A DNA stretch of 64,000 bases. It comes from a bacterium. Its GTDB lineage: Bacteria > UBA8248. The notes beneath the pieces were generated by a model that was not told where the DNA came from, searched no databases, and saw nothing but the letters and a program-made list of their open reading frames with translations. The stretch is from the NCBI GenBank assembly GCA_965213685.1, contig CBDBZY010000044.1, forward strand, positions 172,346 through 236,345, read 5' to 3'. Numbering within the stretch: the first letter of the stretch is position 1; each line of letters begins with the position of its first letter. Shown one piece after another: positions 6,112 to 53,682 of the stretch. Position numbers and translations under genes: made by a program.

Positions 6112-6155
6112 GCGCTCTCCTTCCCGACAAATCTCAAGCCTGGGGGTTCCCAAGC

Positions 6156-17345: not shown

Positions 17346-18176
17346 CTAGGCGACGCCGCGTTTCCTCTTCCATTTCCGGAAATCTCTCCGGGCCTCTTCC
17401 GGCAACGCATGCCCGGGCTGCTTGTGATGGCACTCCACGCACAGGGCGCAGAGGTTTGCCAAACGATTGTCGGATTTGTCCCCGTTCATGTGATGGGCGT
17501 GAAGAAATTTTCTCGCTCTTTCCTCTTCGAGCAGGATGTCGCACTCCTCGCATCGCCACTGCGCTCTCTCCCGGCATATGCGTGAAAATGTTCCTTTATG
17601 GGAGGAATACGTGTTCGGGGGGACGGTGAGGAAATCCGGGTTTTTGGGGCGGGAGACTTTCGTCTCTCCATATTTTTCAAAGAATTCCTGCAGGGAAAAT
17701 TTGGCATATATTTGGTTTCTTTTAGTTTGTCCTCTTTTAGACCATCCACCTATGTTGTAACCCTTGTAGTTCAAACACCCTAAGCAATTTCTACATACGC
17801 GCATCTTTTTGAGTTTTTCTTTCGACGCGTTCTCGCGAACCCAAAAATTCCCGTCCGTCCGGGTCGATGCAACATATCTGTTGTTAAATCGGTCGGTCCT
17901 TTGGAACTCTTGTATGGTGTTGCAATTCGCCACATGGAATTTGTATGTATCATAATGAGCGTGTTGGTCCCGAATATAGACGAGAACCTTGCGCCCCTTG
18001 AAGGTTATTGGGTCGTGGGGGCCGGTCACCCCTATCTCATCCGGGGTAACAGATACCCCTTCCCCACCCAGGATAATGTCTATTTTTGTGGGCCCTTGCG
18101 GGTCAGGAACCAGTTTTTCGATGCCCATTTTCCAGAGAACCGCATCCAATTCGTCAAATCCGACATCAATTTTCAT
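17346..18176 (-). CDS. zorE: HNH endonuclease, ZorE-like effector
   Basis: C-terminal WRCEEC..LHAHHMNGDKSDN..NLCALCVECH HNH/Zn motif. ATG overlaps the zorB stop (ATGA). Symbol assigned from operon context. Confidence 0.7.
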   Translation of the reverse strand: MKIDVGFDELDAVLWKMGIEKLVPDPQGPTKIDIILGGEGVSVTPDEIGVTGPHDPITFKGRKVLVYIRDQHAHYDTYKFHVANCNTIQEFQRTDRFNNRYVASTRTDGNFWVRENASKEKLKKMRVCRNCLGCLNYKGYNIGGWSKRGQTKRNQIYAKFSLQEFFEKYGETKVSRPKNPDFLTVPPNTYSSHKGTFSRICRERAQWRCEECDILLEEERARKFLHAHHMNGDKSDNRLANLCALCVECHHKQPGHALPEEARRDFRKWKRKRGVA

Positions 18177-18892
18177 GGCTTCCCCTTCTCGTTGATGATC
18201 TGCACGATTCTTTTCTCCGCGTTCGTCCGCACGCGAAACTCCACCCTCCTGGATCGCTCCCGGTTCTCGCGGCCATTCTCCAGCACCGGCTTGCTCGAGG
18301 AGAGGCCGTTCGCGGTGAGCCTCCGCTTGAGCCACCCGAAATCCCGGGATACCGCCGCCAGATTCAATACGTATTCCAGAACCGCCCGCGTCCTTTGCTG
18401 GGAGAGTTCCATGTTCTTGAAATAGGCGGTTTTCGCGTCGGGCGATATCCCCCACTCGCTGGAGGTGTGGCCTTCGATGCGCACCTCCTCGATGTCGGCC
18501 TTGTATTTCGGGCCGGTGAGAATCTTCACGTATCGGGGGAAGAAGTCGACGAGGATGTTCTGAAACTTCTCTTTCAGTGCGGCTTCCGCCTGCCCGAAAA
18601 GCACCTCGGGCTCCTGGAAGGTGATGGACAACGTGGCGCGATCTATCTGCGCGGACCATCTCGGCAGGTCATCCGCAAACTCGCGCTTCAGGTCGTCATA
18701 CAGGCTGTCCTGGAGGCGGTTGTAGGTGACGGCGATTTCCTCGATGCGCTGCTTGTCCGCCTGTACCGTGACCATGAATATGACGGTCAGGAACATGAAG
18801 ATCATCATGGTCACGGCCATGACGTCCGCGATGGATATCCACGGCCCTTCATTTTCTTCTTCCTGGAGTGCATCAACGTCATGCATCGCCAT
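18173..18892 (-). CDS. zorB: ZorB, MotB/OmpA-like peptidoglycan-binding membrane protein
   Basis: WISIADVM TM helix with the conserved Asp, RIEGHTSS, NMELSQQR, RSRRVEFRV. Confidence 0.85.
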   Translation of the reverse strand: MAMHDVDALQEEENEGPWISIADVMAVTMMIFMFLTVIFMVTVQADKQRIEEIAVTYNRLQDSLYDDLKREFADDLPRWSAQIDRATLSITFQEPEVLFGQAEAALKEKFQNILVDFFPRYVKILTGPKYKADIEEVRIEGHTSSEWGISPDAKTAYFKNMELSQQRTRAVLEYVLNLAAVSRDFGWLKRRLTANGLSSSKPVLENGRENRERSRRVEFRVRTNAEKRIVQIINEKGKP

Positions 18893-20855
18893 TCGCCTTT
18901 CTTAGTATATCCATGACGCGCTTCAGCGCTGCTGCCAATGGCGTATAATCACTGGCGAATTGTTCCGATATGCTCGCCATTCTGCGCCCCAACTGGCTCA
19001 GCGTTTCTTTGAGTGCGTCTTCGAGTCCCTTGTTTATCGCATTCATCCTCGCATCGGTGCTCTCCTTGGCGCTGGTGAAGGCTTCCTCTACGTGAGTATT
19101 TAGTCGTGCGGCTACATCGGAGACGATCGTTTTCTGTTGCTCTTCGGCGTCCTCCATGTATGCGCGCATGTGCTCGATGCTTTGCTTGGACGATTTGCTT
19201 ACTTGCTCCATGGCGGCGGTGGCTGTTTCGTCCAGTTTGGAGAATCCGGCGATCACCTTTTCGATGAATGCCCGTTGTTCGTCCAGCGTTTTCTGGTTTT
19301 CTTCCATGGACCGCCGCACGGCGCTGGCGAAACCCTCCGTGAGTTCGCCTACCTTGGCCCGTTGTTCGTCCAGGTTTTTCTGATTTGCCTCCATGGACCG
19401 CTGCACGGCCTCGGAAAGATTTTCTGACATTTGGAGGATCGCCTGCTCCGCGCTGGTGAAGGCTTCCTCTATGTGAGTTCTCAGTCGTGCGGCTACATCG
19501 GAGAAGATCTTTTTCTGTTGCTCTTCGGCGTCCTCCATGTATTTGCGCATGCGCTCGATGTTTTGCTCGGACGATTTGCTTACTTGCTGAATGGCGGCGG
19601 TGGCTGTTTCGTCCAGTTTGGAAAATCCGGCGATCACCGTCTCGATGAATTTCCGTTGTTCGTCCAGCGTTTTCTGGTTTTCTTCCATGGACCGCCGCAC
19701 GGCGCTGGCGAAACCCTCCGTGAGTTCGCCTACCTTGGCCTCCAGGGTGGGCAGAAGCTCCTTGGCTTTCTCCGACACGTCGGCGAACTGCTTCATGTAA
19801 TCCGCCAGGGATTTCCTTTGCTCCTCAATGGCGCTAAGAACGGGAGCGAGCTTCTCCGCCGACTCGGTGATGGCCCAGCTGTGCTGTGCTATCTCGGCGA
19901 TGGCGTCCCGCGTCTGCTCGGTGGCGGAGACCGTCCTCTCAAACTGCGCGATCATCGCTTGCGTTTGCTCCGCGTATTTGTCCTGCCAGACGACGAGCTT
20001 CTCGACCGCCTGGTTGAGCTGCCGGAAGTTGTCCCCGAACTGCTCGTTTATCTTCGCGTTGAAATCCCGAATCACCTCCTCCAGGGCTTTGATGAGCGCC
20101 TGGCTGTTCGCCTCCGCCATTTTTTCCGCGAAAGCCCGGAACTCCCCGATGAGTTCGTCCTGCTTGTCGGCGAAGGCGGTGCGGAATTTCTGTACCTGGG
20201 TGAGCATGGAGGCCTCCCCCTCGCCCGAGACCGAGGCGCGGATGCTCTCCAGGCTTTCGAGCGTCTGCCCGTGGTTCGTCTTGTCGGCTTCCGCCTGCGC
20301 TCTCAGAAGGCTCTCAAGGGCTTGAACGGCGGCCAGCGCCTCCTTGTGGCTCTCCTTTCCCGCTTCCGTCTGCGCGTGCAGCGCCTCCGTTTGTCTTCGG
20401 AGAAGTTCTGAAACGGTGGCGCCCTCCTCCACCGCTCTGCGCCGGAGGAAGATTCTGCGCCAGAGTGGGATGGCCGCGCGATCGATGATTCTCGTAAAAA
20501 GAGTCGCTACGATGCCGAATATGGAGGTGAGGAACGCTGTTTTCAGGCCGGCGAGAAGGGGCGGGACGCTTTTTTCTATGTCGTTGGAATCAAAATCGAA
20601 GAGGCCGATATAGATGCCGACGAATGTTCCCAGAATGCCGACGACGGTGGTGATGGACTGCGAGAATTTTCGGCAGTTCCGCGTCCATAGAAGAGCGAGG
20701 CAACAAGCTACAATCCCCAGGCAAAACCATTGCGTGATTTGATCCGGGGTGATTTGATCCGGGGAGGTTTCGGGGTTCAGGACAGGCTGCAAATACCGAT
20801 AGAGAGACGGATGCAGAGCGTGCAGGGGCGAAACAAGAGTGCGCAGGGAATCCAC
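18879..20855 (-). CDS. zorA: ZorA, MotA/TolQ/ExbB-like membrane protein with long helical tail
   Basis: Three TM segments with GILGTFVGI and GLKTAFLTSIFG, then about 500 aa of coiled-coil-like sequence. Overlaps zorB. Confidence 0.85.
   Translation of the reverse strand: MDSLRTLVSPLHALHPSLYRYLQPVLNPETSPDQITPDQITQWFCLGIVACCLALLWTRNCRKFSQSITTVVGILGTFVGIYIGLFDFDSNDIEKSVPPLLAGLKTAFLTSIFGIVATLFTRIIDRAAIPLWRRIFLRRRAVEEGATVSELLRRQTEALHAQTEAGKESHKEALAAVQALESLLRAQAEADKTNHGQTLESLESIRASVSGEGEASMLTQVQKFRTAFADKQDELIGEFRAFAEKMAEANSQALIKALEEVIRDFNAKINEQFGDNFRQLNQAVEKLVVWQDKYAEQTQAMIAQFERTVSATEQTRDAIAEIAQHSWAITESAEKLAPVLSAIEEQRKSLADYMKQFADVSEKAKELLPTLEAKVGELTEGFASAVRRSMEENQKTLDEQRKFIETVIAGFSKLDETATAAIQQVSKSSEQNIERMRKYMEDAEEQQKKIFSDVAARLRTHIEEAFTSAEQAILQMSENLSEAVQRSMEANQKNLDEQRAKVGELTEGFASAVRRSMEENQKTLDEQRAFIEKVIAGFSKLDETATAAMEQVSKSSKQSIEHMRAYMEDAEEQQKTIVSDVAARLNTHVEEAFTSAKESTDARMNAINKGLEDALKETLSQLGRRMASISEQFASDYTPLAAALKRVMDILRKANGDA
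19069..19740. repeat. 291-bp diverged direct repeat inside zorA (19069-19359 and 19450-19740)
   Basis: Two near-identical blocks offset by 381 bp (127 codons), each encoding AKVGELTEGFASAVRRSMEENQKTLDEQR...EEAFTSA. Confidence 0.95.
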
Positions 20856-27365: not shown

Positions 27366-28487
27366 TCACAACTCATTGGTTTGCTCCTGGCTCCTCCCGC
27401 CTCCCGCGCCGTTGGCGCCGGTTTCCGCAAGCCCTACCCGGGGGGCATCACCAGGGCGGCGCGTCCCGTGATGCGCCCCTCCCGCAGGCGTTCATGCGCG
27501 CGGTTCGCCTCTTCGAGAGCGTAGGTTTGGCTCACCAGGGGCCAGATGTCGCCCCGCGCCACGAGCCGCAGGGCGTCTATCACCTCCTGCCTGGTGGCGT
27601 AGCGGCTGCCCATGATCTGCTGCTCCTCGCGGAGCAGCTCCCGGGGGGGCGAAGGGAAACGGCTCTATCCGGCTCGCGCCCATGGCGAGGAAGCGCCCCC
27701 CCTTGCCCAGGCCGCGCAGGCCGCCCTCCACCCCCTCGGCGGTGCAGACGAAGTCAACCACGACGTCCACGCCCGCTCCACCGGTCAGGCCCCGGAGCGC
27801 CTCGGCCAGGTTCTCCCGGGAGGCGTCCACCGTCTCGTGGGCGCCCATGTCGCGGCACCTGCCCAGCTTCTCGGGCGCGACGTCGACGGCGATGACGCGC
27901 GCCCCCGCCCAGCGCGCCATCATCACCATGTGGATGCCCACCCCGCCGCCGGCGCCCACCACGGCCACGTTCTCCATCGGCTGGATTTGCGCGCGCCGGA
28001 CCGCCTTGTAGGGCGTGGCCACGGCGTCGCAGACGACGGCCGCCTCGGCGGGGTGCGCCCTGTAGTCCAGCCCCTCCGGCAGGCGGATGAAATTCCGCGC
28101 GGGCAGCCTGACGTACTCGGCATAGCCGCCGTCCATCTGGCGGCCGACCTGGCCCGCCAGATTCTCGCACAGGGTCTCGCGGTTGACGCGGCACCACCGG
28201 CAGTGCCCGCAAGTGAAATAGTAATACGCCGTCACGGGGTCGCCCTCCCGCAGCCCGTCCACGCCCGCGCCGACCTGTGCGATTTCCCCGGCGATTTCGT
28301 GTCCGATCACGAGCGGAAAGTTCCCGCCCATCCGCCCTGCGCGCGTGTGCTCCACCGTCAGGCCCGCACCGCAGGCCAGCACCCGCGCCACCGCCTCGCC
28401 CGGCCCCGCGACGGGAAGGGGCCTCTCCTCCAGGATGAACGGCGCGCCTGGTGCCGGCAATACCATCGCTTTCATCATCGGCTCCAA
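27366..28487 (-). CDS. Zinc-binding alcohol dehydrogenase, one +1 frameshift
   Basis: GHEIAG, CGHCRWC...C, GAGGGVG. Removing one G from the G7 run at 27643-27649 restores ELLREEQQIMGSRY...GRITGRAALV to TGA at 27366. Confidence 0.8.
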
Positions 28488-28613
28488 GGTCGGAATGGAT
28501 TTGATTTTGATGAGGGTTTCCCCTGTTTCATGGGGCCCTCCCCGCTGGTGGGAGGGTAGCCCGGGGAGGCGAAAACGGGGGAGTAGCGGGGGAGGGTGCG
28601 CCCCGTTCCCGCA

Positions 28614-29468
28614 TCAGCGCGCCGGCGTGCGGGACGGGGAGGCTTTCTTCTCGCCCGCCGCGCACCAGTAGGGGGCGGAATCCGACACGCGGACGTTCTC
28701 CAGCCCGCTTTCCTCGAGCATCTCGAGGAGCCGCTTTTTGGTGAACCTCTTCTCCAGTCTGGTGGAAAACCTGTCGAGTGCGTCGGTTCGCATCGTGTAG
28801 AAGCCCGTGTTTCTGTAATAGCTCAATGGAACGTGCTCGACGCTGAAGCCCCGGCGGCTCAGGATTCCCGAGAACCGGGCCAGCGGCAGGTAGACGAATG
28901 CCGCGATGAGGTCGCAGATGAATTTTTTCCAGCCGAAGGGAAGGCGCGAGATGATGTTTCTGAGGAGGTCGGAACACCGCCAGATCGCGCGAAACCAGAG
29001 GGGCCGATTGTCGAAAGCGTAATACAGGTACACGAGAAACGGGGCGCCGGGCTTGAGCAGCTCGACGCATTTTTTCAGGCCCTGGATCGGGCTGGGAACG
29101 TGGTGCAGCACGCCGATCGAATACCCGAAATCCATGGAGCCCCTCTCCAGCGGAACCGAATCGACGCTGGCGTGTATGTAGGCGATGTTCGCACAGGCGG
29201 CGCAGTGTTTTCGGGCCACCGCCAGTGCCTTTTCGCTGGCGTCGATGCAATACAGCCTGCCCACGCGCGGGGAGACCCATTTGGCCCACCTGCCGCTGCC
29301 GCATCCCAGATCAAAGCCGACCGAGCGAGCGTCCGTCCTGTGCCACGGAAAGACCGAAAAATAATTCTCAAAGCGTTGTCGGGCTTCTTGCGGGGACAGG
29401 GCGGACTGGTCGAAGCGCGTCCATTCCTCCCCGAAATCCGCCACCGTGGCGTCGTCCTGGTTTTTCAT
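28614..29468 (-). CDS. Class I SAM-dependent methyltransferase, probably glycan-associated
   Basis: FGEEW..F, DLGCGSGRW motif I, GVLHH.P, LLKPG. Confidence 0.85.
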   Translation of the reverse strand: MKNQDDATVADFGEEWTRFDQSALSPQEARQRFENYFSVFPWHRTDARSVGFDLGCGSGRWAKWVSPRVGRLYCIDASEKALAVARKHCAACANIAYIHASVDSVPLERGSMDFGYSIGVLHHVPSPIQGLKKCVELLKPGAPFLVYLYYAFDNRPLWFRAIWRCSDLLRNIISRLPFGWKKFICDLIAAFVYLPLARFSGILSRRGFSVEHVPLSYYRNTGFYTMRTDALDRFSTRLEKRFTKKRLLEMLEESGLENVRVSDSAPYWCAAGEKKASPSRTPAR

Positions 29469-30573
29469 CCGAACCCCCCGGAGCGGAGGTTTCCCGCACG
29501 CACCCCGCAGCTGCGCCTAGGCAGAGGCGGCCGAGCGGGGTCGGTTAGCCCCCCCCCCCCCCCCCCCCCCCCGCGCGTCGCGCCGGTGTGGACGTGTCGT
29601 GCCCATTCGCGGTTGGCCATATACCATTCCACCAGACGCGCGAGGCCGTCGGCGAGCCGCACCTGAGGCTCCCAGTCCAGGAGCCTCTTCGCCTTGTCGA
29701 TGTTCGCCCAGCTGGCCTTCGCGTCGGCGGGGTTCATCTCCTCATGGCGCACATCGGCCCTCTTCTCTGTCAGGGCCTCGATGTGCCGGAGGGCGTCGTT
29801 CAGGGCGACGGACCTGTCCGATCCCAGATTGATGATTTCGTATGACAACGGCCTGAGCGCCGCGACGGTGCCCCGGGCGACGTCGTCCACATAGGTGAAG
29901 TCGCGCTGCTGGGAATCCGTCTCCATAGACGAGAACGGGTTTCCCCTCGTGTATCCACTGCGTGAAGCGGAACAGGCTCATGTCGGGCCGGCCGGCCGGG
30001 CCGTAGACGGTGAAATAGCGCAACACCGTCGCGTCGATTCCATACAGATGGTGATAGGTGTAGCAGAGTCCCTCGGCCGCCTTTTTCGAGGCCGCATAGG
30101 GCGATAGCGGCCTGTCGGTCGGGGCGTCCTCGCGAAACGGCATGAGCCCCCTCCGCCCCGTAGGCACTCGAGGTGGAGGAGAACACGAATTTCATGACGC
30201 CAAAATCCTTGCAGAGTTCCAGCAGGTGAAGCGTGCCGGTGGTGTTGGCGTCGAAATACGCCCAGGGGTCCGCGATAGACTCCCGGATGCCCGCGCGGGC
30301 GGCCAGGTGCAGCACGGCGGCGAAGGGCGGTGCGTCGCCCGATGCGTTTTCCGCGAACAGCCGCCGCAAGGCGTCGAGCCGGGTGACGTCCGCCTTGTGA
30401 AAAACGAAGCCCGGCCGTGTTTTCAGGCGGGCGAGCCGGTAGTCCTTGAGCCGGACGTCATAGGCGTCGTTCATGTTGTCTAGGCCGACGACGGCGTGGC
30501 CCTCATCGAGCAGAAGCGCGCATACCCTGGACGCGATGAAGCCCGCCGCGCCGGTGACGAGATACTTGGCCAC
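29465..30573 (-). pseudogene. NAD-dependent nucleotide-sugar epimerase (UDP-glucuronate 4-epimerase-like), two frameshifts
   Basis: VTGAAGFIA, HLAARAG, SSTSSAYG / PLSPYAASKK, LRYFTVYGP.GRPDM / QRDFTYVDD lie across three frames. The breaks may be sequencing error. Confidence 0.8.
29549..29572. repeat. 24-nt C homopolymer (poly-G on the coding strand)
   Basis: Read directly. Confidence 0.9.
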
Positions 30574-30830
30574 TCCTGGTTCCTCCTCCCCCGCGCCATG
30601 TCGCGTTTGTGTGAAAGTCGGCGGGATGCTATCAGCAATGGACGGGTTCGCAAAGCGTCCGAAGGGGCGATGAGCCGTCCGCCTTCGGATGAGAAGGCGA
30701 CCCCATGCGGCGGCGGCTTGCATGTGGTTAAAATCTGTTCCATTATCTATATAGTAATATAACGAGTTTGTTGTTGCAATCGACGTTTCGCTCTCAGAGT
30801 GCGCATGTTCGCCAGGCGGGTGGGGGATGC

Positions 30831-30844
30831 GGGGGGGGGGGGGG
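30831..30844. repeat. 14-nt G homopolymer in a divergent intergenic region
   Basis: Read directly, about 37 nt upstream of ATG 30882. Confidence 0.9.
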
Positions 30845-30881
30845 CGTTCTTTTTTCTTTTCGTCCGGGTTGGGAATCTTCC

Positions 30882-31611
30882 ATGGCGAATGTGTTGGTGA
30901 CGGGAGGGGCCGGGTTCATCGGCGGCCACTTGGTCGAGGCCTGCCTCGAGGCGGGCGATTGCGTGACGGTGGTGGATAACATGGCGTCCGGCACAACGGA
31001 AAACCTCATCGAAGGCGCTGTTTTCCACGAGGGAGACGTTGCGGATTCGGGGTTCATGAGCCGCCTGGTGCGAAAGGTGCGCCCGGAGGTCATCTACCAT
31101 CTGGCTGCCCAGGTGGGCGTGACGCGCAGCACAGCGAAACCCCTCGAGGACGCGCGCGTCAACCTCATGGGCACGCTCAGCGTCCTGGAGGCGGCCAGGA
31201 GTCTCGAGGCACCGCCGAGGGTCGTCTATGCCGCCACGGGGGGAGCTTGCTACGGGAACCCCGGGGAGGCGAATCGTGGATGAGGGTTGCCCGCTCGCCC
31301 CCGCCTCCCATTACGGCATGAGCAAGGTGCTGGGCGAGCAGTCTCTCTTGTTCTATGGCGGACTTTTCGGGTTGCCCGTCGTCTCCCTGCGTCTCGCCAA
31401 CGTCTACGGGCCGCGGCAGCACCCCCGACCTCGAGGCGGGCGTCGTCACGATTTTCGCGAGAAACCTGATGGGGGGCGAGGCGGTCACCCTCTATGGGCA
31501 CGGGCGCGCGCGTTTCAGGAGAAAACCGGCTGGCGGCCCAAGTATGGGCTGGAGGAGGGAATCGCCGCTTTCGTGAAGTCCCTGCAGGCCTATCCGGGCA
31601 GGCGCCCATAG
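30882..31611 (+). pseudogene. NAD-dependent epimerase (UDP-glucose 4-epimerase-like), frameshifted and internally deleted
   Basis: VTGGAGFIG, HLAAQ, YGMSK, LRLANVYGPRQ. After VTLYGHG the usual RDFV..D segment is absent and the sequence jumps to the C-terminal GWRPKYGLEEGI. Confidence 0.75.
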
Positions 31612-32116: not shown

Positions 32117-32644
32117 ATGAGCCGTCTCGCGCCGCTTGTGCCGGAAGCCATGCCGCGGGAGCAAAGGGATGCGTATGAGGAACTCCTCGCCCACCAGCGC
32201 GGCGGCGTGCGCGGGCCGTTTGGCGTCTGGGTGCGGAGCCCGGGTCTCGTCACGGCGCTTCGCGGCCTGATGCGGTTTTATCTCGAGCGGAGCGTGCTCA
32301 CCGAGGATGTCCGCGAACTCGTCATCCTCATCACCACGCGCCACTGGGGGGCGCGATACGCCTACGCCGCGCACGAGGCCCAGGCTCTGGCCAGCGGACT
32401 GACGCCCGCGCTCGTGGCCGCCGTGATGGCGCAGGAGGCGCCCGCCTCCGGCACCGCACTCGAGCTTTGCGTTCACGCCTATTGCGCGGAGCTGCTCCGC
32501 ACCAAGGGGGTGTCGGACGCCACCTACCGGCAGGCGTTCGCCCTGCTCGGGGAGAAGGGCGTGGTGGACCTCACCGCCCTCGTCGGCTTTTACTCGACCG
32601 TCTCCGTGACGCTCAACGCCTTCGAGATACCCCCCGTGACGTAG
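32117..32644 (+). CDS. Carboxymuconolactone decarboxylase family protein
   Basis: RGPFGVW.RSP, RELVIL, AHE..A..SGL, LGEKGVVDL..LVGFY. Confidence 0.85.
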   Translation: MSRLAPLVPEAMPREQRDAYEELLAHQRGGVRGPFGVWVRSPGLVTALRGLMRFYLERSVLTEDVRELVILITTRHWGARYAYAAHEAQALASGLTPALVAAVMAQEAPASGTALELCVHAYCAELLRTKGVSDATYRQAFALLGEKGVVDLTALVGFYSTVSVTLNAFEIPPVT

Positions 32645-32715
32645 AGGGGGAGCAGCGTATTTGCCGGATACCTACTTGGCTATTCCGCCATTGTGCGCAT
32701 CTTTGTTCTTTTCTT

Positions 32716-33465
32716 GCGGGCGTGGCTTATGGAAAATTTGACCACTACCGACTGATTGACACCATGAGGATATTGCCAAAGGAAGAAAAAGGTTCCCGGG
32801 AGCCGGTTTTGGGTGTGGAGGAAGGCGGGTTGGAATCCGCGGAGGCGCTGTTGCTCGCGCGATATTTTATGTTTTCACAAGTCTATTATCATCCCGTCCG
32901 CCTGATGTATGATCGGCACTTGTACGATTTTTTAACATCCTGGCTGAAAAAGGAACGGAAAGAGGAAGTATTCCCGACGACCTATGAAGGGCATTTGAAG
33001 TATACGGACAATGAAGTCATGTCCTCCATATTATCTGTCGCCAAAGACGAATCCCATCCTGCCCATGCGCACGCCGCCCGCATCGTTCATAGACGCCATT
33101 TCAAAAACATTTATCGGCCCACTGCCGGGGACAAAAAACTTTCTTTGGAATCAGGTAAATCTTTGAAGCCAGGCAAAAAAATGTATGAAGCGGCATCCAA
33201 GGAATTCGGCAAGGAAAAAGTGAAACATGTTCAGATACCGCAAAAGCGCGGCAAAAATAATTTTCCGGTTCTTGTACAAGGGAATTTTCCGGTTCTCATA
33301 CAAGGGAAGAGGATCGCGCAGGCGGTGAATGAGAAAGAAACATTCTCCAACATTCCGTCAGCGTCTTGTGATCATGTGTTTGCTGCACCCGAAATCAGGG
33401 ACAAAGCCGGTGATTGGCTGGAGGCAAACAGAGAGAGAATCCTTTCATCTGCCGGGGAGAACTAG
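32716..33465 (+). pseudogene. C-terminal fragment of a SAMHD1/YwfO-like HD phosphohydrolase
   Basis: AGVAYGKFDHYRLI, GGLESAEALLLARYFMFSQVYYHPVR, YTDNEV. No upstream HD or DRMDYL motifs before the preceding gene. Confidence 0.75.
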
Positions 33466-33469
33466 GCGC

Positions 33470-34009
33470 ATGGAGCGATTGGAGAGGGCCGCTGTTATCG
33501 TGTCTTTGGCCGCCAAACTTAGAGATGGCGGTAGCTGGTGTGGGGAAACGCATCTTCAGAAGGGGACGTATTTTTTGCAGCATTGGCTGGAAGTGCCATT
33601 GGGGTTTGATTTTATCCTTTACAAGCACGGTCCTTTCTCCTTTGATTTGGGCGATGAGCTATCCTGGATGCGGGCGAACGACCTCTTGAAACTGGCACCG
33701 CAACGGCCGCCGTACGGACCGAAGCTGATACCCGGTGAAAATGCGCAGCTTTTGAAGAGAGCATGCCCGAAACCGATCGGGGAACACGCGGCCAAAGTTC
33801 AAGAGATCGCGGAGAAATTCGCTCCGATGGACGTGAGAAAATTGGAGAGATACGCTACGGCATACTATGTTTCTCGGGAGCATGGAGAAGAGGATGACAT
33901 CGCGATCGCATCTAAAATTGTTGCGCTCAAACCGCATATCAGCCAGGGCGAGGCACAGGAGGCTGTGGAGTTTGTCGGTCGGTTAAGAAGCGACTTGCCG
34001 AATGGGTGA
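33470..34009 (+). CDS. YwgA/SocA-Panacea-like small protein
   Basis: WCGETHLQKGTYFLQ...FDFILYKHGPFSFDL and LERYATAYY. Starts 4 nt after the HD fragment. Confidence 0.6.
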   Translation: MERLERAAVIVSLAAKLRDGGSWCGETHLQKGTYFLQHWLEVPLGFDFILYKHGPFSFDLGDELSWMRANDLLKLAPQRPPYGPKLIPGENAQLLKRACPKPIGEHAAKVQEIAEKFAPMDVRKLERYATAYYVSREHGEEDDIAIASKIVALKPHISQGEAQEAVEFVGRLRSDLPNG

Positions 34010-34041
34010 ATCATGTTCGCCCATGTTTTTGGGCGACGTTC

Positions 34042-35572
34042 TCACCCGGGGCATCTGCCGGCGTCCCGCGTCATGCTCAGGAGCCTCTCCTGGACGCTCT
34101 CGCTCCATGCGCCCTCCTGCATCCGCCAGAGCCAGTTGCCCCCCGTGACGCCGGGGCGGTTCATGCGCGCCCCGGTGCCCAGGCCGAGCACGTCCTGTGC
34201 GGAGATGATGGCGAGTGCGGCCCGGGATTTCAGCGCGGTCCAGATCATCGACCAGTGAATGTCCTCGGGCTCTCCCCCGAAGGTTCGCAGCGCCATGGCG
34301 CGCGAGGTGGCGAAATCCGCGGGCGATTCGGTGTGGAGAACCGGGTCCGTGCCGTGAAACCAGCCCTGGGCGGTGTCGTTGTCATGCGTGCCGGTGTAGA
34401 CCGCCGCGCGCTCGGGAATGTTGCGGGGAAGATGGGGGTTGTCCGGGCTGCCGTCGAAGGCGAACTGCAGGACGCGCATGCCGGGCAGGCCGAACCGATC
34501 CCGCAGGGCGTGGACGTCCTCGCCCACGGCGCCCAAATCCTCGGCGATGAGGGGGAGGGTGCCCAGCTCCGCCTCGAGGGCGCGGAAAAAGGCGTCTCCC
34601 GGCCCCGCGCGCCACGCGCCGTCCGCCGCCGATTCGGCATCCGCCGGAATCGCCCAGAAGCGCGCGAAGCCGATGAAGTGGTCGAGGCGCAGGGCGTCGA
34701 ATCGCGAGACGTGCGCGCGGAGGCGCATCTTCCACCAGGCGAAATCCTCCGCGCGGTGCGCCGCCCAGTCGTACAGGGGATTTCCCCAGCGCTGTCCCTC
34801 CCGGTTGAAGTAGTCCGGCGGCACGCCGGCGAAGGCGCTCGGCCGGCCGGATGCGTCGAGTTCAAACAGGCTCCTCCTCGCCCATACGTCCGCAGAATCG
34901 TGGGCGACGTAGATGGGGAGGTCCCCGATGAGGCCGACCCCGTTTTGCGCGGCGTAATCCCGGAGGGCGGCCCAGTGCTGGTGAAAGAGGAATTGCTCGA
35001 AGCGCGCGTAGCGGACGTTCTCCTGAAACGCCGGCGCATCGAGGTCCCCGCATCTCGCCTCCTCCGGCCACGCCCACCAGGGGGAGTCGCCAAACGCGCG
35101 CTTGAGCGCCTGGAACCTCGCATAGTCGGCCACCCAGTGCGCATTCGCCTCACAGAAGCGCTCGCACGCGGCGGCGGCCTCCGCCCCGCCCTCGTTCGAG
35201 AATCTCTCGAACGCCCGCCGGAGCAGGGATTCGTGCGCCTGTGCCGCCTGGGCGTGGTCGATTCCTCCGCCGGGCGGGGGTTGGGCGCCTCTGCGCTCCT
35301 TTTCGGAGAGGAGCCCCTCCTCGGCCAGCCGGTCGAGCGATATCAGCAGCGGGTTTCCCGCGAAGGTGGAGGAGGACACGTAGGGGGAACCCGTCTGGTC
35401 CGTGGGGCATACGGGCAACATCTGCCACCAGGTCTGACCGGACGCCCGGAGGTGGTCGATGAACTCGAACGCGGCGGGGCCCAAATCGCCGAAAACCGCT
35501 CTCGCCCGGCAGCGAGGTGGGGTGAAGCAGGATGCCGCTGCTTCTGGTATCAAGCGGATTCGCCTGGCGCAT
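34042..35572 (-). CDS. malQ: 4-alpha-glucanotransferase (amylomaltase), one N-terminal frameshift
   Basis: RSSGILLHPTSLPG / GDLG..WWQMLP, IGDLPIYV, GVPPDYF..GQRWGNPLY, RLDHFIG, IAEDLG, YTGTHDNDT, MNRPG...NW.WR. Confidence 0.9.
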
Positions 35573-35741
35573 TCCTGGGGGGATCACTCATCGTAGGGGT
35601 TGTGTGGGCGCCTGCGCTTCTTCTCGCATCGGCTGGGCCTCGCGTGCGCCGCCGACGGGTTCGGGGAACTATATGACACGGGGCGCGCCGTTTGTTCAAG
35701 CCCGGCGTCCCGACGGGTTCGGCATGGGCGCCGCGGGCGCG

Positions 35742-38740: not shown

Positions 38741-38797
38741 GAGGCTCCTTCCTCCAAGTGATGGGGCGGGCCCGGCCCGCCCTGACGCGGCGCGCGT

Positions 38798-39830
38798 CTA
38801 GTCGTCTTCTGCCAGCGCTTCGGCCACTTCCACGGGTTCGCCCCGCTCCGAGGAGCGCATGGCCGCCCACACGGCGCCCAGCACGTGCAGCCCTTCGGGG
38901 CCGCCGACCTCGGGCGGGCGCCGCTCCCGAACGGCTGCGGCGAAATCCTCGAACTCCTCCACGAGATAGTCCTGTCCCGGGTATTCCTCGTAGGGAATCT
39001 CCTCGCGCTCCGTTCCGTCTTTTCGCAGGATTTTGATTCCCTCCCACCTGTCGTGGTAGAGGTTCGCCTCGTCTCCGTATGCGTTCATGAAATAGGTGTA
39101 TCGTCCGTTCGGCGTGCGCGGGCTGATGAAGCTCGTCCCCAGGGTGGCGAGCAGACCGGACTCGAACTCGAACCAGACGACGCTCACGTCGGGAATCTCC
39201 GATTTCGTCTTCACCTTGCGGAACGCCGCCGACGCGCGCTTGATGGGTCCGTGCAGATACAGCAGGTTGTCCACCTGGTGAATGGCCACCTGGAGCAGCG
39301 GCCCGCCGGGGGAGCCTTCCGCATACCATTGCCAGTTCTCCGGCGTGTAGTGCAGGCCCCGGTCGTTCGAGTAGTTCGTCTCGGCCATCGCCAGGGTTCC
39401 GACGACTCCCTCGTCGAGCAGTTTCTTGAAGAGGCGGTGGCCCCGGAGCCTCCTCGAGCTCGCGCCCACCGCCAGGGTGACGCCGGCGTCCTCGCAGGCG
39501 CGAATCATTTTTTTTCGCATCCGGTATGGAGGCGGCGATCGGCTTGTCGACGAACACGTGCTTTCCCCGCTCGGCGGCGGCGACCGCGAGTTCCGCGTGG
39601 CGGTTGTTGGGGGCGGCGATGACCACGGCGTCCACGTCCGCGTGCCGGACGACCGCCTCGTAGCTCTCCTCCTGGCCGCAGGAGAACCTTTCGCTGAACG
39701 CCTGGCGCTTCCCGGGCGTTCTCGTGAAGCACGTGGCGATTCGCATCCCGGGCGTCTTGACGATGTGGGACGCCAGGGTGTTGCCCCAGCGTCCCAGCCC
39801 GACCACGGCCACTCTCAGTGGATCGCTCAT
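38798..39830 (-). CDS. Gfo/Idh/MocA family oxidoreductase, +1 frameshift at an A8 run
   Basis: VVGLGRWG, GKHVFVDKP, GGPLLQVAIHQVD. The break is at 39508-39515. Confidence 0.8.
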
Positions 39831-49911: not shown

Positions 49912-50008
49912 TGGCGGGAGCGCGTGGGAGTCGAACCCACCGACGAAGTGGTTAGCCCCGTCCACTGGATTTGAAGTCCAGGCGGCACACCAGCACCGAT
50001 GCGCTCCC
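49912..50008 (-). tRNA. selC: tRNA-Sec (anticodon UCA)
   Basis: GGGAGCGC/GCGCTCCC 8-bp acceptor stem, 6-bp D stem with 4-nt loop, CTGGA-CTTCAAA-TCCAG anticodon arm, long variable arm, GTGGG-TTCGACT-CCCAC T arm, G discriminator and encoded CCA. Confidence 0.95.
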
Positions 50009-50181: not shown

Positions 50182-51084
50182 ATGTCCCGACGTGTGGGTA
50201 TCGTGGGCATGGGACTGATGGGCCAGGCGTTCATCCGGAACATGCGCGAGACGGGTTTTGAGGTGCAGGGCTTTGATGTGGACGCCGCGCGCATGGATGA
50301 TTTGCGCGAGAAGGGCGGCGAGCCGGTGGAAACGCCCGCCGCCGCGGCCAGCGGGGTGAACTTCTTGGTGACCTCCCTTCCCGACAGCGGGGTGGTGCGC
50401 GAGGCGGTCTTCGGGGCGGGCGGCATCGCCGAGGGGGCGAAGGAGGGGCTGTACCACCTCGACACCACGACCGCGCGCCCGGAGGATTCGGTTCGTCTCT
50501 CGGAGGAGTTGGCGGAGAGGGGAATCCGCTTTCTCGACGCCGCCGTGAGCGGGACGAGCGCGATGGCGGTCGAGAAGGACTTGGTCGTCGTCGCGGGCGG
50601 CGGAGCGGAGGATTTCGACGCCTGCCGCGCCGTTTTCTCGGGCTTCAGCCGCGCCGCCTACTACATGGGCCCCGTGGGTTCGGGTGCGCGGACGAAGCTG
50701 GTCATCAACATGATTCTGGCGGGCAACCGCCTCGCCCTGGCGGAGGGGCTGCTGCTCGGCTCGAAGGTGGGCCTCGAGATGGACACCCTCCTGGAGGTGC
50801 TGCAGGACGGGGCGTGCTATTCCAAGACGATGGTCGACAAGGGGCCCAAGATGGTGCACGCGGACTACGCGAAGCAGGGGCAGGTGAAGACGTCCCTCAA
50901 GGACTCGCGCCTGATGATAGAGCAGGGCCGGCGCCACGGCTCTCCCATGCTGCTGACGAATCTCTGGTCGCAGGTCGCGCAGATGGCGTACGAGAGGGGC
51001 TACGGGGAGGAGGACACAGTCGCCTTCTACGAGGTTCTGCGCGAGATGGCCGGCCTGCCCTCGAGAATAGATGCGCGGCCGTGA
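50182..51084 (+). CDS. NAD(P)-dependent oxidoreductase, 3-hydroxyisobutyrate dehydrogenase family
   Basis: VGIVGMGLMG, LDTTT, FLDAAVSG, GSGARTKLVIN. Paralog of 46374-47294. Confidence 0.85.
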   Translation: MSRRVGIVGMGLMGQAFIRNMRETGFEVQGFDVDAARMDDLREKGGEPVETPAAAASGVNFLVTSLPDSGVVREAVFGAGGIAEGAKEGLYHLDTTTARPEDSVRLSEELAERGIRFLDAAVSGTSAMAVEKDLVVVAGGGAEDFDACRAVFSGFSRAAYYMGPVGSGARTKLVINMILAGNRLALAEGLLLGSKVGLEMDTLLEVLQDGACYSKTMVDKGPKMVHADYAKQGQVKTSLKDSRLMIEQGRRHGSPMLLTNLWSQVAQMAYERGYGEEDTVAFYEVLREMAGLPSRIDARP

Positions 51085-51220
51085 GAGGGGCGGTCGCGAC
51101 GGGGAGGAGATTCATCTCGTTGGGCGGAGAATAAATGATGATATAAATTAGAATACAAAGAGAATGACCATCTTCCGCCTATCCCGAAGCGCGTGAAACG
51201 GAGAAATTCTCGGGGCGAGC

Positions 51221-52174
51221 CATGCGCCGTTTTCGCACGCGAGCGAAGATAGATTTCCGTTGAAGCCCAATGCAAAAGATGCGCATTACGGGCACGAAGA
51301 TTACTCGGCGGAAATCGTGCGCCACGTCCTCAAAGACGTGATCGAAGGCCATCCCGCCAACGGAAATTACGGATTTACCGCCGATGACGTAGTTGCGCTT
51401 ATAGAGGGTAGCGAAAACCCCCGAGGTGCGTTGTTCTGGCGCGAGCTCATACAAGGCCCGATAGATGCGGATCGGATGGATTATCTCCTGCGGGATTCTC
51501 ACCACGCGGGGGTCGATTATGGCCGTTTCGATTGGCACCGTCTCGCGCAGACGGTTCAGGCCGTTCCGGGCGTGAACGGCGGGAGCCCGACTCTCGGGGT
51601 TTCCGAAGGCGGATTTCACGCGGCCGAAAGCTTGATTCTGGCGCGCTATTTCATGTTCACTCAAGTGTATTTCCACAAAACCCGCCTTGCCTACGACCAC
51701 CATCTTAAAGAGGCGCTCCAGGAAATTCTGCCCGGCGGGCGCTGGGCGCTCCCGACTCCCGAGAAGCTCGATGAATATCTTGCCTGGGACGATTGGCGGG
51801 TGCTGGGCGCTCTGAAAGGGGGCGCGGGCGGTGCGCATGGGCGACGAATTCTCGCCCGGGATCACTACCGGGAGATATGGCATACGCCCGAGGTGCCGGG
51901 CGACGATGGGATGAAGCAGTTGGAAGAGCGGAGAAAAGAATTGAACGGGCTGGACTTTGTGGAAATTCCGGCGAAAAAATCCTGGTACAACCCCGGAGCT
52001 GCCGACATTCCCGTTCTGATGGAAACTCTCGCTCGTGAAAGAAAGCCGCTTTCTGATTTGTCCTCGGTCGTGCGTGGCATTCAACCGATTCGCCAGTTTC
52101 GACTATATGTTTGCCCCCAGGATCGGGCGAAAGCCGAACGTCTATTGAATCGAAACGGAGGAGAAAATGGATGA
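51221..52174 (+). pseudogene. N-terminally truncated SAMHD1/YwfO-like HD phosphohydrolase
   Basis: The frame reads stop(51194)-NGEILGAS-HAPFSHASE...HEDYS...IDADRMDYLLRDSHHAGVDYG...ARYFMFTQVYFHKTR. The LLHD.G and R..HS.G motifs expected upstream are missing. Confidence 0.8.
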
Positions 52175-52724
52175 TTCCGGGTGGAACAAACTGGGGCTGA
52201 TTTGCGCCTTGGTGGAAAAGAGCGATCGCGCCGGCCGAACCGCGCTCATGAAATTCGCCTATCTTCTGAAAGAGATAAAAGGCGTTCCGCTCGGCTATCG
52301 GTTCAGGCTGCATATTTACGGCCCCTTCGATTCCCGCTTGCTGGGCGACCTGGGCTACGCCGAGGCGCTTCATGCGGTGAAAAGCTCCCTGGAGCCTTTT
52401 CCGGGAGGATATTCCTATCGATATGCGCCTGGCGACAAAATCGGGGAATTGAAAGAGCGCGCCCGGGATTTTCTGGAGAAATACAATAAAGAGATCGACT
52501 GGGTGGTCGGGGAGTTTGGCTCCAAAGATGCGGGCGCCCTGGAGATGATCAGCACAATCGTCTTTGTCGACCGGAGTGCCGAAGAGCGCAAGTCTAAAAA
52601 TTCCGTGGACGCGCTTTCCGAAAAAGTCTTCAAGATCAAGCCTCATCTCAATCTAGGCGTGATCCGCAAAGAAGTTGAGCGACTCAATGAACGGGGCTAT
52701 CTCAAGGCTGTTGCCGCCGGGTAG
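52167..52724 (+). CDS. YwgA/SocA-Panacea-like small protein
   Basis: GRTALMKFAYLLKEIKGVPLGYRFRLHIYGPFDS, LEMISTIVF, IKPH. GGAG RBS; overlaps the HD stop. Confidence 0.6.
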   Translation: MDDSGWNKLGLICALVEKSDRAGRTALMKFAYLLKEIKGVPLGYRFRLHIYGPFDSRLLGDLGYAEALHAVKSSLEPFPGGYSYRYAPGDKIGELKERARDFLEKYNKEIDWVVGEFGSKDAGALEMISTIVFVDRSAEERKSKNSVDALSEKVFKIKPHLNLGVIRKEVERLNERGYLKAVAAG

Positions 52725-53682
52725 ATGCGCTGCCTTCCGCCGAATCGCTCAGGTCGGGCGGGTAGGGCGCGAAATAGGTTTGCGCCTCCAGGTAGGCGGT
52801 GCCGAAGCGCGCCGTCCACCCTTGGAGGGTTCCGAGCGGGGAGGCCAGCGGGACGTCTCCCGCCCGGTATTGTTCCAGTGCCTCCAGGAAGCGCGCCTTC
52901 TCCCGGCGGCTGATTTTTTTCGAAAAATATCCGAGGGCGTGGGTCAGGGCGTTGACGTGCGCGGCGTGCCCCGGCACGCGCGCCAGGAGCCCCAGGAGCG
53001 CGCTTTCGTATGACGCGATGACGTCCCCGAACGCGCGCTTCTCCTGGTTCGCGAGCAACCTCCCCATGGCGCGCATCGTCGCCTGGTGGTGGGCCATGAA
53101 CAGGAGCTTGTTCTCCGCGTGGTAGCGAACGAGGCGGGCGGGCCGTCCCGTTTTCCTGACCTCGCGGAAGCTGGCGAGTGCGAAGATTTGCGTGAGGAAG
53201 TGCGCGCGAACGGCCGGGTTGCGCAACCGTTCCTCATCCGTCACGGCCAGTGCGCCGAATTTCTCCAGCACCTTGTCCGCGAACAGGCCCGTCCCCCTGG
53301 CGCGGTGGCGGGTGGATTCGGGAGCGGGGAATATCTTCGCGCCAGCGATTCCGCACGACGGGGATTTTTCCTTCAGAATAAAACCGTCGACTTCTTCCAG
53401 GCCTGCCAGAAATCGTTCGGAAAAGGCGTTCATCTCGCGCGTGAGACGCTTTTGCGTGCGGGGCTGGTAGAGTGCCTTCCTCCCCCCGTCCAGATATATC
53501 CGGACGGGGTCCCGCGGGATGCCCAGGCCAATCTCCACCTCGGGACAGACCGCTTGGAGCCGCACAAAGGGTTTCAGCCGCTCCAGAAAGCGGAACGGGA
53601 CGCTCCCGCCGTCGTAGCGGCATGCGTCGAACTCCAGGCATCGGCTCGCCACGACGACGGGCGTCGGGAACTCCCGGCTCAA
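52702..53682 (-). CDS. DUF523-DUF1722 (YbbK/YbgA, 2-thiouracil desulfurase-like) protein
   Basis: SRCL....CRYDG, VCPEVEIGLGIPR, LKEKSPSCG, G.GLFA, NALTHALGYFS, YLEAQTYF.PYP. Start is uncertain (TTG 53682). Confidence 0.85.
   Translation of the reverse strand: MSREFPTPVVVASRCLEFDACRYDGGSVPFRFLERLKPFVRLQAVCPEVEIGLGIPRDPVRIYLDGGRKALYQPRTQKRLTREMNAFSERFLAGLEEVDGFILKEKSPSCGIAGAKIFPAPESTRHRARGTGLFADKVLEKFGALAVTDEERLRNPAVRAHFLTQIFALASFREVRKTGRPARLVRYHAENKLLFMAHHQATMRAMGRLLANQEKRAFGDVIASYESALLGLLARVPGHAAHVNALTHALGYFSKKISRREKARFLEALEQYRAGDVPLASPLGTLQGWTARFGTAYLEAQTYFAPYPPDLSDSAEGSASTRRQQP

Follow-up and report, generated by a model that had tools for sequence, protein, structure and literature searches.

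Two low-GC islands (GC, the fraction of guanine plus cytosine) in a 64-kb stretch of DNA from a bacterium of the lineage UBA8248 (contig CBDBZY010000044.1; the whole stretch is called the window below) each contain two co-oriented frames, of which the first is associated with an HD-type phosphohydrolase and the second encodes a small partner protein. We interpret both loci as dead, young and independently beheaded members of a predicted HD-Panacea-type module, which fell to ordinary decay in a gene-losing lineage, and we put the probability of this reading at about 0.6. The GC content of the copy 1 island (32645-34010) is 0.41-0.54 and that of the copy 2 island (about 51085-52727) about 0.50-0.62, compared with 0.649 for the entire window. 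BLASTP aligns the two HD fragments with 35% identity over 195 amino acids (aa; E 2e-26) and the two partners with 28% identity over 150 aa (E 4e-15). These alignments contain all motifs from which an earlier note on this DNA had recognized the kinship of the copies, namely, GV.YG.FD..RL and GG..(S/A)AE.L.LARYFMF.QVY.H in the HD fragments and T.L.K..Y.L....VPLG..F.L...GPF and KPH in the partners. A search of all stop-to-stop frames with an HD profile (431 positions, built from 181 full-length relatives) and a partner profile (183 positions, built from 118 partner proteins) found no further HD or partner piece in the 64 kb, be it an N-terminal or a full-length HD. The features of the first locus are the following:

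32716..33465, forward strand: HD remnant of copy 1 (profile positions 199-428 of 431), corresponding to the C-terminal lobe of a SAMHD1-type HD enzyme
33470..34009, forward strand: partner 1, intact, 179 aa, starting 4 nucleotides (nt) after the stop of the HD remnant (profile positions 1-176 of 183)
32645..32715, no strand: deletion scar, about 45 bp of old intergenic region joined to the HD gene near the DRMDYLLRDS codons
33259..33306, forward strand: in-frame tandem duplication within the HD remnant (24 nt, 8 codons, 92% identity), from repeat search, alignment and blastn gaps
34002..34024, forward strand: terminator-like hairpin across the stop of partner 1, with 10 pairs and a T run behind them (a consensus match; 3 sites versus 2.7 expected in shuffles)
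32117..32644, forward strand: upstream flank, gene of the CMD family (carboxymuconolactone decarboxylase; Pfam PF02627, E 1.8e-5), with its stop at 32642-32644
34042-35553, reverse strand: downstream flank, 4-alpha-glucanotransferase gene malQ (Pfam)

The truncation of copy 1 is documented by related genomes. Five of them (L001-L005) share the same chromosomal site, their flanks being 78-88% identical to the window at the nucleotide level on either side, and all five harbor a full-length HD gene in a single open reading frame (ORF; profile positions 2/3 to 427/429) between the CMD-family gene and the partner. The blastn anchors are 63 bp apart in the window (32652 to 32716) and 763 bp apart in L001 (7237 to 8001). 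According to the DNA alignment with the five relatives, the net loss amounts to about 700 bp and comprises the AT-rich leader beyond its first 45 bp or so, the start codon and about 198 codons up to DRMDYLLRDS; the promoter region was lost along with these codons. Since the five relatives hold the module whole at this site, it is ancestral there and the truncation represents a private deletion of the window lineage. The full-length alleles for which the earlier note had proposed to search are thus present at the copy 1 locus in five of five cases. The CMD-family gene adjoins the module in the five related genomes, is 78-80% identical to its counterparts at the nucleotide level, with an alignment that reaches the module edge, and forms one intact frame compared with L003. 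The 24-nt duplication is absent from the relatives and is the one private change of the remnant. The synonymous divergence (dS) of the module is about 1.4 between the window and the relatives and 0.9-1.15 among the latter, which is 2-3 times higher than in the flanks (about 0.55 and 0.26-0.43, respectively) and may be due to the different base composition or to an exchange of alleles at this fixed site. An imperfect 26-nt repeat (77%) at 32625-32650 and 34134-34159 was taken as chance; its right copy lies within the conserved coding sequence of malQ.

The HD homology of copy 1 extends by profile over window positions 32677/32716-33459 and begins at profile position 199, in agreement with the earlier statement that the gene starts after the DRMDYL motif. 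Only the Pfam family PF19276 (HD_assoc_2) is matched (E 2e-10, above the cutoff), the HD domain PF01966 is missing, and none of the metal-binding and catalytic residues is left (H57, H105, D106, H134, E135 and D193, in the numbering of the relative P0002). The remnant frame is open for 249 codons. Its 5' end contains no ATG with a ribosome-binding site, the in-frame candidate GTG at about 32722 lacks a Shine-Dalgarno-like sequence, and a promoter scan returned no promoter-like site upstream of either HD remnant. The AlphaFold2 model of the copy 1 remnant has a pLDDT (predicted local distance difference test) of 75.5, with values of 34-65 for the first 60 or so residues and confident stretches at about residues 100-180 and 220-240, and resembles the C-terminal halves of 2HEK, EF1143 and SAMHD1 (E 7e-8 to 1e-3).

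The second locus exhibits a different break:

51209..52174, forward strand: HD remnant of copy 2 (profile positions 110-422; homology at window positions 51209-52168)
52167..52724, forward strand: partner 2, intact, 185 aa, its ATG overlapping the HD stop by 8 nt (profile positions 8-172 of 183)
51085..51208, no strand: AT-rich leader with a GC content of 0.50-0.56, no homology in three frames and no promoter-like site
51068..51080, forward strand: left copy of a 13-nt direct repeat, TAGATGCGC[G/T]GCC, located within the terminal codons of the dehydrogenase gene upstream
52722..52734, forward strand: right copy of the same repeat, TAGATGCGC[G/T]GCC, beginning at the stop codon of partner 2
Flanks of copy 2: the dehydrogenase gene on the left and a DUF1722 gene on the right

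The break of copy 2 coincides exactly with the site of the HD dyad, and the remnant starts within the HD..GH.PFSH stretch. PF19276 is again the only Pfam match (E 5e-8, above the cutoff), with PF01966 unmatched. H57, H105 and D106 are gone; H134, E135 and D193 are kept, and the remnant retains the GH.PFSH motif (as SHAPFSH), the HE pair and DADRMDYLLRD. With the residues that are left, neither remnant could bind the catalytic metal. The frame of copy 2 is open for 325 codons from the stop at 51194-51196; the first listed start is TTG 51260, upstream of which the frame reads stop-NGEILGASHAPFSHASE. No ATG with a ribosome-binding site was found at this 5' end, and TTG 51260 is not preceded by a Shine-Dalgarno-like sequence. 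The AT-rich leader may be the old 5' region of the module. Within the 64 kb, the pattern of the 13-nt repeat has exactly two occurrences, one at each border of the island, against an expectation of 0.01 for a pattern that was picked post hoc. The repeat may represent an insertion footprint. Copy 2 has its nearest relatives at 64-70% identity; they are mostly 420-453 aa long, with a few shorter ones, and carry PF01966 and PF19276. A tRNA-Sec gene (anticodon TCA; 49912-50008, reverse strand), which precedes the copy 2 island by about 1.1 kb, overlaps the listed start of the dehydrogenase frame.

In the HD tree, copy 1 clusters with L001-L005 and P0241-P0259, and copy 2 with P0001-P0012 (support 0.89). 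The common ancestor of the two copies spans all 122 tips; they are thus not the product of a recent duplication. The tree check suggested by the earlier note hence places the copies in separate clades and different subfamilies, and together with the distinct breakpoints (profile positions 199 and 110) it substantiates the view that two different deletions took place. The best 80 loci of the genome scan described below are all of the copy 1 kind, and some relatives probably carry both kinds of HD gene whole.

The relatives also reveal what has been lost. P0241, the nearest relative of copy 1, has 449 aa, 81% identity and both domains (PF01966 and PF19276). The next seventeen matches are 62-72% identical, and all except P0253 (267 aa) have 416-476 aa and both domains, which are present in 18 of the 19 best matches. 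Among solved structures, P0241 matches the Aquifex protein 2HEK (E 4e-51), the Enterococcus deoxynucleoside triphosphate hydrolase (dNTPase) EF1143 (E 1e-27) and SAMHD1 (about 4e-21), and 180-181 of the 181 full-length relatives retain H57, H105-D106, H134-E135 and D193. By homology, the intact gene 1 is a SAMHD1-type HD enzyme, and its family membership predicts the activity of a deoxynucleoside triphosphate (dNTP) triphosphohydrolase. The HD genes of the window are remnants of SAMHD1/EF1143-type members and not working ones. The PADLOC dGTPase model (PDLC02374) is weakly matched by full-length HD relatives (E 4e-9 and 2e-7, over about 100 N-terminal residues), and no PADLOC model was matched by the HD remnants of the window.

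Both partners are full length, as the earlier note had stated, with a profile cover of 1-176 and 8-172 of 183 positions. Partner 1 most likely starts at ATG 33470, and not at 33329 as listed, because the resulting 179-aa form is identical letter for letter to a database protein. It has 2299 relatives with a best identity of 84%, several of which are named "uncharacterized protein YwgA" by JGI; the best relative of partner 2 is P0361 (68% identity, residues 1-183 versus 1-184), among 1103 cluster representatives at E<=1e-3. The AlphaFold model of partner 1, based on a 30-sequence alignment, is helical with a pLDDT of 93, and its N-terminal half looks like a winged helix. A Foldseek search of the PDB yielded a sole match at E<=1e-3, which is the C-terminal domain of DarG in the Mycobacterium tuberculosis DarTG complex (7YK3 chain D with a template modelling score (TM) of 0.72 and E 8e-4, chain B with TM 0.70 and E 2e-3; probability 1.00); PadR/MarR-type regulators are weak fold matches with a probability of 0.15-0.28. 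The PADLOC DarG model is matched by partner 1 (E 1.7e-6, positions 165-311 of 329) and partner 2 (E 1.9e-5), and the NCBIfam DarG model in its C-terminal part only, with 22 bits versus a cutoff of 250. The Pfam Panacea model PF13274 was matched by one of the 30 aligned partners (E 0.17) and by neither partner of the window, and Pfam provided no family common to more than two of these 30 proteins. In an Atlas cluster with a score of 0.89 to the partner, 13% of the members carry PF13274, which is a lead only. The partner profile found among PDB sequences nothing but a chance-level apolipoprotein match (E 0.24). The model thus supports an antitoxin-like fold of the partner, and the earlier label "YwgA/Panacea-like" is justified by this DarG-C fold and by the JGI naming, but not by the Pfam Panacea model. 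A complex prediction for the copy 1 remnant with partner 1, run without controls, gave a score of 0.00 and a mark of 0.32 and is neutral on binding.

The partner family is not tied to HD enzymes everywhere, as is evident from plasmid pMETHO01 of Methanomethylovorans hollandica (L081), on which a partner-like gene (5965-6540; 28% identical, E 5e-27 with our own profile) follows a DNA polymerase gene with no HD gene within 6 kb. It is the single partner match among plasmids. HD relatives in PLSDB (43 records) have at most 36% identity and never reach 80% query cover, and the module is not visibly plasmid-borne in this database. The ywfO-ywgA genes of Bacillus subtilis were considered as a possible instance of the same pair and are not relied on here: in two Bacilli records (Bacillus, Listeria) the HD gene is 33-35% identical and no partner-like ORF is located within 3 kb.

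The frequency with which such modules break was assessed in species-representative genomes, which were scanned with an alignment of the C-terminal HD fragment, chosen so as not to favor intact genes. At least 522 loci were confirmed, and the following counts refer to the best 80 of these 522, which span many bacterial phyla and methanogenic archaea (Methanothrix to Planctomycetota). The partner is situated directly downstream of the HD gene in 79 of the 80 loci, the contig of L057 ending first. This corresponds to the layout of type II toxin-antitoxin systems with co-oriented, tightly spaced genes. The HD gene is whole in 69 of the 79 judgeable loci (L023 is cut by the contig end) and disrupted in ten, namely, by nonsense codons (L010, L048, L057), an internal deletion that joins PFSHAAEKE to MDYLLRD (L030), an insertion (L065, 5557-7509; about 1.95 kb, with profile positions 74 and 68 on its two sides) and frameshifts (L008, L017, L034, L063, L080). 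The stops of L010 (6994-6996, TGA for a Trp codon) and L057 (7833-7835, TAA) lie two alignment columns apart in unrelated genomes, and in L048 a second, divergent HD gene (5908-7110, reverse strand; profile positions 6-417, score 193) is arranged head-to-head upstream of the pair with the nonsense HD.

The partner is split in three of 78 loci (L034, L058, L080); in L034 and L080 the HD gene is shifted as well, and the frameshift of the L058 partner sits in a run of eleven G. Ten HD lesions in 79 loci versus three partner lesions in 78 are as expected from the length ratio of 431:183 (p=0.43), and the inclusion of the two window copies leads to 12:3 (p=0.30). Moreover, when a deletion of 350-690 bp is placed at random in a module of this geometry, the partner escapes in 58-66% of cases. 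The proposal of the earlier note that toxicity had set the order of decay is therefore not borne out: its test, whether partners are lost as often as HD genes, gave the anticipated direction (10 versus 3), but no excess over gene length. The survey provides a base rate (HD 10/79, partner 3/78) with which claims about decay order can be tested on the full set of loci.

The remnants bear no trace of decay. The ratio of nonsynonymous to synonymous substitutions (dN/dS; Nei-Gojobori on codon alignments) of the copy 1 HD remnant is 0.114 between the window and the relatives and 0.139 among the relatives, compared with 0.142 and 0.114 for the partner and 0.07-0.27 and 0.05-0.16 for the flanking genes. 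The comparison of HD remnant and partner that had been recommended earlier (0.114 versus 0.142) hence reveals no rise in the copy 1 remnant. Among the columns with at least 97% conservation in the 181 training sequences, 0/25 are changed in copy 1 and 0/37 in copy 2, the 69 intact loci having averages of 0.22 and 0.38, and the downstream pieces of disrupted HD genes elsewhere contain 0-1 such changes. Relaxed selection on the remnant was thus looked for by dN/dS and conserved columns and not found. This lack of decay implies that the deletions are recent or that the remnants are still constrained, two options which these data do not separate.

The deletion of copy 1 is one of several lesions in its vicinity. 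In a comparison with L003 over 13 kb around copy 1, a Zn alcohol dehydrogenase and a 313-aa gene have one frameshift each, one epimerase has two, and the other epimerase combines three frame changes with a 213-bp deletion (near 31510); the dehydrogenase, the two epimerases, both NAD-dependent, and the 313-aa gene are located at 27446-31587 and 38792-39680. A GFO/IDH/MocA oxidoreductase gene, which the relatives harbor between malQ and the peptidase gene (L003 11003-12100), is missing at about 35700-35737. The CMD-family gene, the partner, malQ, the prolidase-type peptidase and two small genes are intact. The differences of 213 bp, about 700 bp and about 1.3 kb cannot be sequencing errors, and deletions are thus frequent in this genome.

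The genomic company of the pair in other organisms would fit a role in defence. In three loci (L006, L009, L067) it is framed by HmaA directly upstream (PADLOC E 4e-105 to 4e-199; in pieces in L006) and HmaB directly downstream, and an HmaB-like gene follows the partner directly in ten loci, as judged from a blastp cluster of which L007 and L071 were checked against the HmaB model; in L031 an N-terminal piece upstream of the pair also matches this model. Among 114 flanking ORFs of 68 further loci, 22 ORFs in 21 loci match PADLOC at E<=1e-10, a count without a control sample. Named components are found in 17 of these 21 loci and include BrxL, DpdF, LmuA, MzaE, NsnB, RmrA, type IIG and type III restriction-modification (R-M) proteins, a dGTPase, PDC-S20 and others. 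A 2024 preprint (bioRxiv 10.1101/2024.01.29.577857) relied on genes embedded in Hma systems to nominate new defences; none of its nine tested candidates (HEC-01 to HEC-09) has the domains of the HD enzyme or the partner, and the terms "HD domain", "dGTPase", "DarG" and "DUF4065" do not occur in its main text. Our pair resembles such Hma-embedded candidates in L006, L009 and L067, but the pair of the window is not part of an Hma locus.

A dedicated model for the HD plus partner module does not exist in PADLOC-DB 2.0. In our literature search, which did not extend to the bioRxiv supplements, the pair was described nowhere beyond a few lines of one dataset; no paper on YwgA function was retrieved, and the YwfO papers give guesses only. 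The dataset in question is Dataset S1 of Kurata 2022 (PMC8832971), in which an HD-domain protein (CDD YdhJ) forms the predicted toxin cluster T34 from five genomes, all marked "notest", with the order toxin then antitoxin and two further pairs filed as not conserved. The main text of that paper does not mention HD toxins. The T34 pairs resemble ours in that the HD gene leads and a small partner comes second, at a spacing of -17 to +23 nt in T34, and our HD relatives bear the JGI name "HD superfamily phosphohydrolase"; our partners, however, miss the Pfam Panacea model and are set beside the T34 pairs by their descriptions only.

Three other kinds of system invite comparison. With respect to DarTG, a 2026 paper (PMC13621843) states that DarT is bound and inhibited by the C-terminal domain of DarG, to which DUF4065 (Panacea) proteins are homologous. 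The model of our partner superposes on this DarT-binding domain with a TM of 0.72 (query-normalized) and 0.69 (target-normalized); the partner lacks the macrodomain, however, has only 179-185 aa that match positions 165-327 of the 329-position DarG profile, exhibits a sequence identity of 12-14% and is the neighbor of an HD enzyme instead of the DarT ADP-ribosyltransferase. In Clover, the closest working analogy in print, the dNTPase CloA is restrained by its partner CloB in uninfected cells, and nucleotide depletion is stated to be toxic (PMC12265719). Both systems encode an HD-type effector, a dNTPase in Clover and by prediction in ours, together with a second gene, which restrains CloA in the former and may do the same for the enzyme in the latter. 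The Pol-beta-type nucleotidyltransferase CloB makes an inhibitory nucleotide, whereas our small, non-enzymatic partner with its antitoxin-like fold would inhibit by direct binding; no nucleotidyltransferase match was found for it in Pfam, NCBIfam or PADLOC. Single-gene bacterial dGTPase defence (PADLOC PDLC02374) and the dNTPases SAMHD1 and EF1143 share the HD fold and the catalytic residues with our full-length relatives, but our family is set apart by a distinct C-terminal region (PF19276) and by its obligate partner. The match of the partner to PDC-M19A is weak (E 3e-7 to 1.5e-4).

Taken together, the intact module may be pictured as follows. Gene 1 (about 430 aa) encodes a SAMHD1/EF1143-type HD enzyme that probably acts as a dNTP triphosphohydrolase. 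The product of gene 2, which is tightly coupled to gene 1, has about 180 aa and is helical and winged-helix-like, with a predicted DarG-C fold. In the most likely working model, the partner would bind and restrain the enzyme in the manner of a type II antitoxin or a Panacea-type adaptor, and phage attack would set the enzyme free and thereby drain the dNTP pool, which would make the module a protein-inhibitor counterpart of Clover. The deletions in the window would be young and part of the general lesion load of the lineage, added to a frequent inactivation of HD genes elsewhere. The partner would have stayed intact because its gene is short and little time has elapsed, so that selection to keep it is not needed, and the cost of an active enzyme may well favor the loss of the HD gene.

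Several observations weigh against the interpretation as ordinary decay or against parts of it. Both modules in one 64-kb window were hit, which has a probability of about 1.6% if the events were independent at the rate of 10/79 and calls for a shared cause, either selection or lineage-wide decay. Both deletions take the 5' end, and a random deletion that spares the partner and starts in the short leader is expected in only 8-10% of cases per locus. Without L034, L058 and L080, which were judged to be long-read from the assembly names alone and excluded post hoc, the lesions number 8:0 (p=0.059), and 10:0 with the window copies (p=0.029). The perfect preservation of the remnants would also fit a continued function. 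All 1-bp changes relative to L003 are insertions in the window, several of them in runs of G7, C5, T8 and T8, and part of the background decay may be sequencing error. The figure for defence neighbors is a plain count and not an enrichment test, and the module of the window lineage is located among housekeeping genes and not in a defence island. The dNTPase activity, toxicity, binding and defence function of the family are predictions.

The explanation favored by the earlier note, an HD toxin and a partner antitoxin with enzyme-first decay, is in our view possible, but unlikely as the cause of the two truncations. It holds that lesions which kill the enzyme are tolerated or even favored and that a working enzyme renders partner lesions lethal, the orphan partner perhaps protecting against related incoming modules. 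In accordance with it, the partner fold is that of a toxin-binding antitoxin domain (DarG-C), HD plus PanA pairs are predicted toxin-antitoxin pairs in Dataset S1 (PMC8832971), dNTP depletion is stated to be toxic in the Clover paper (PMC12265719), and both deletions of the window take the promoter and the start, which is the surest route to silencing. Moreover, no locus with an intact HD gene lacks an intact partner save L058 with its shift in a run of eleven G, but an obligate two-subunit enzyme would produce the same pattern. The ratios of 8:0 and 10:0 in short-read-looking assemblies (p=0.059 and 0.029) depend on the post hoc exclusion of three loci on the basis of assembly names, and all loci together fit gene length (10:3, p=0.43; 12:3 with the window, p=0.30). 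Every lesion is young, so that the survey cannot show partners outliving enzymes, and 58-66% of random deletions spare the partner anyway. What stands of the earlier proposal is a potentially harmful enzyme with an antitoxin-like partner, a reasonable assumption with independent support from the fold and the predicted HD plus PanA pairs; the evidence does not extend to an order of decay set by toxicity. Its second suggestion, a C-terminal HD lobe retained as a non-catalytic scaffold, appears quite improbable, also in the broader form of a working unit with the partner, such as a decoy or an anti-addiction device. The remnant frames are open over 249 and 325 codons, their conserved columns are unchanged (0/25 and 0/37), the dN/dS of 0.114 does not exceed that of intact relatives, the model is confident at about residues 100-180 and 220-240, and the coupling to the partner is kept (4-nt gap, 8-nt overlap). 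Yet neither new 5' end offers an ATG with a ribosome-binding site or a promoter-like site upstream, the first 60 or so residues of the copy 1 model have a pLDDT of 34-65, and breakpoints about 90 residues apart do not define a common short form; disrupted HD genes elsewhere are equally well preserved (0-1 changes), as would be the case for young pseudogenes here.

It is likewise rather unlikely that no conflict system is involved and that the partner is the obligate subunit of a housekeeping nucleotide-pool enzyme, whose dispensable function was lost twice. The module is stable at one chromosomal site in five species-level relatives, among housekeeping genes; related HD genes of Bacillus and Listeria stand without a partner; the PadR/MarR-type folds are weakly matched (probability 0.15-0.28); and YwfO-like HD proteins have been treated as nucleotide house-cleaning enzymes in print (PMC4993169). 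This contrasts with the patchy distribution over bacteria and archaea, a GC content foreign to the host, the embedding of the pair in Hma systems and next to BREX, Dpd, Lamassu and R-M genes, a toxin-binding domain as the sole strong fold match, and a module dS 2-3 times that of the flanks, though the latter is possibly a composition effect. An assembly artefact, with both HD genes whole in the organism and sequence lost from the contig at both places, is very improbable. The window is known from the assembly alone, and its many 1-bp homopolymer insertions relative to the relatives suggest that the assembly is perhaps error-prone. But consensus errors do not cut 330-700 bp cleanly out of single-copy sequence, the sequences at the two junctions bear no relation to each other, and truncated or split forms of the HD gene are common in independent assemblies.

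Two further low-GC stretches are present in the window. In the island at 2972-4130 (reverse strand), an N6/N4 DNA methylase is divided between two frames, which cover Pfam profile positions 25-163 and 169-212; an Mrr-type nuclease domain is fused to the second of these, and the whole looks like a broken restriction-modification-type gene. The stretch at 17346-20855 (reverse strand) comprises three frames: one of 437 aa without a Pfam match, one of the OmpA family, and one of 658 aa with only weak apolipoprotein-like repeats.

The two loci of the window are ordinary broken genes, and the family behind them is of more interest. A bolder proposal, which we consider tentative and rather doubtful, is that the pair represents a very widespread uncharacterized anti-phage module (at least 522 loci), in which a protein antitoxin keeps in check a SAMHD1-like dNTPase whose cost leads to its repeated knockout, in about one genome in eight, and in which orphan partners, perhaps together with the C-terminal lobe, persist and confer immunity to incoming modules of a related kind. 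The problem that Clover solves with a nucleotide signal is to keep a dNTP-draining effector harmless until infection. If it is true that the partner restrains the enzyme by direct binding, the module would represent a second, protein-based answer to this problem.

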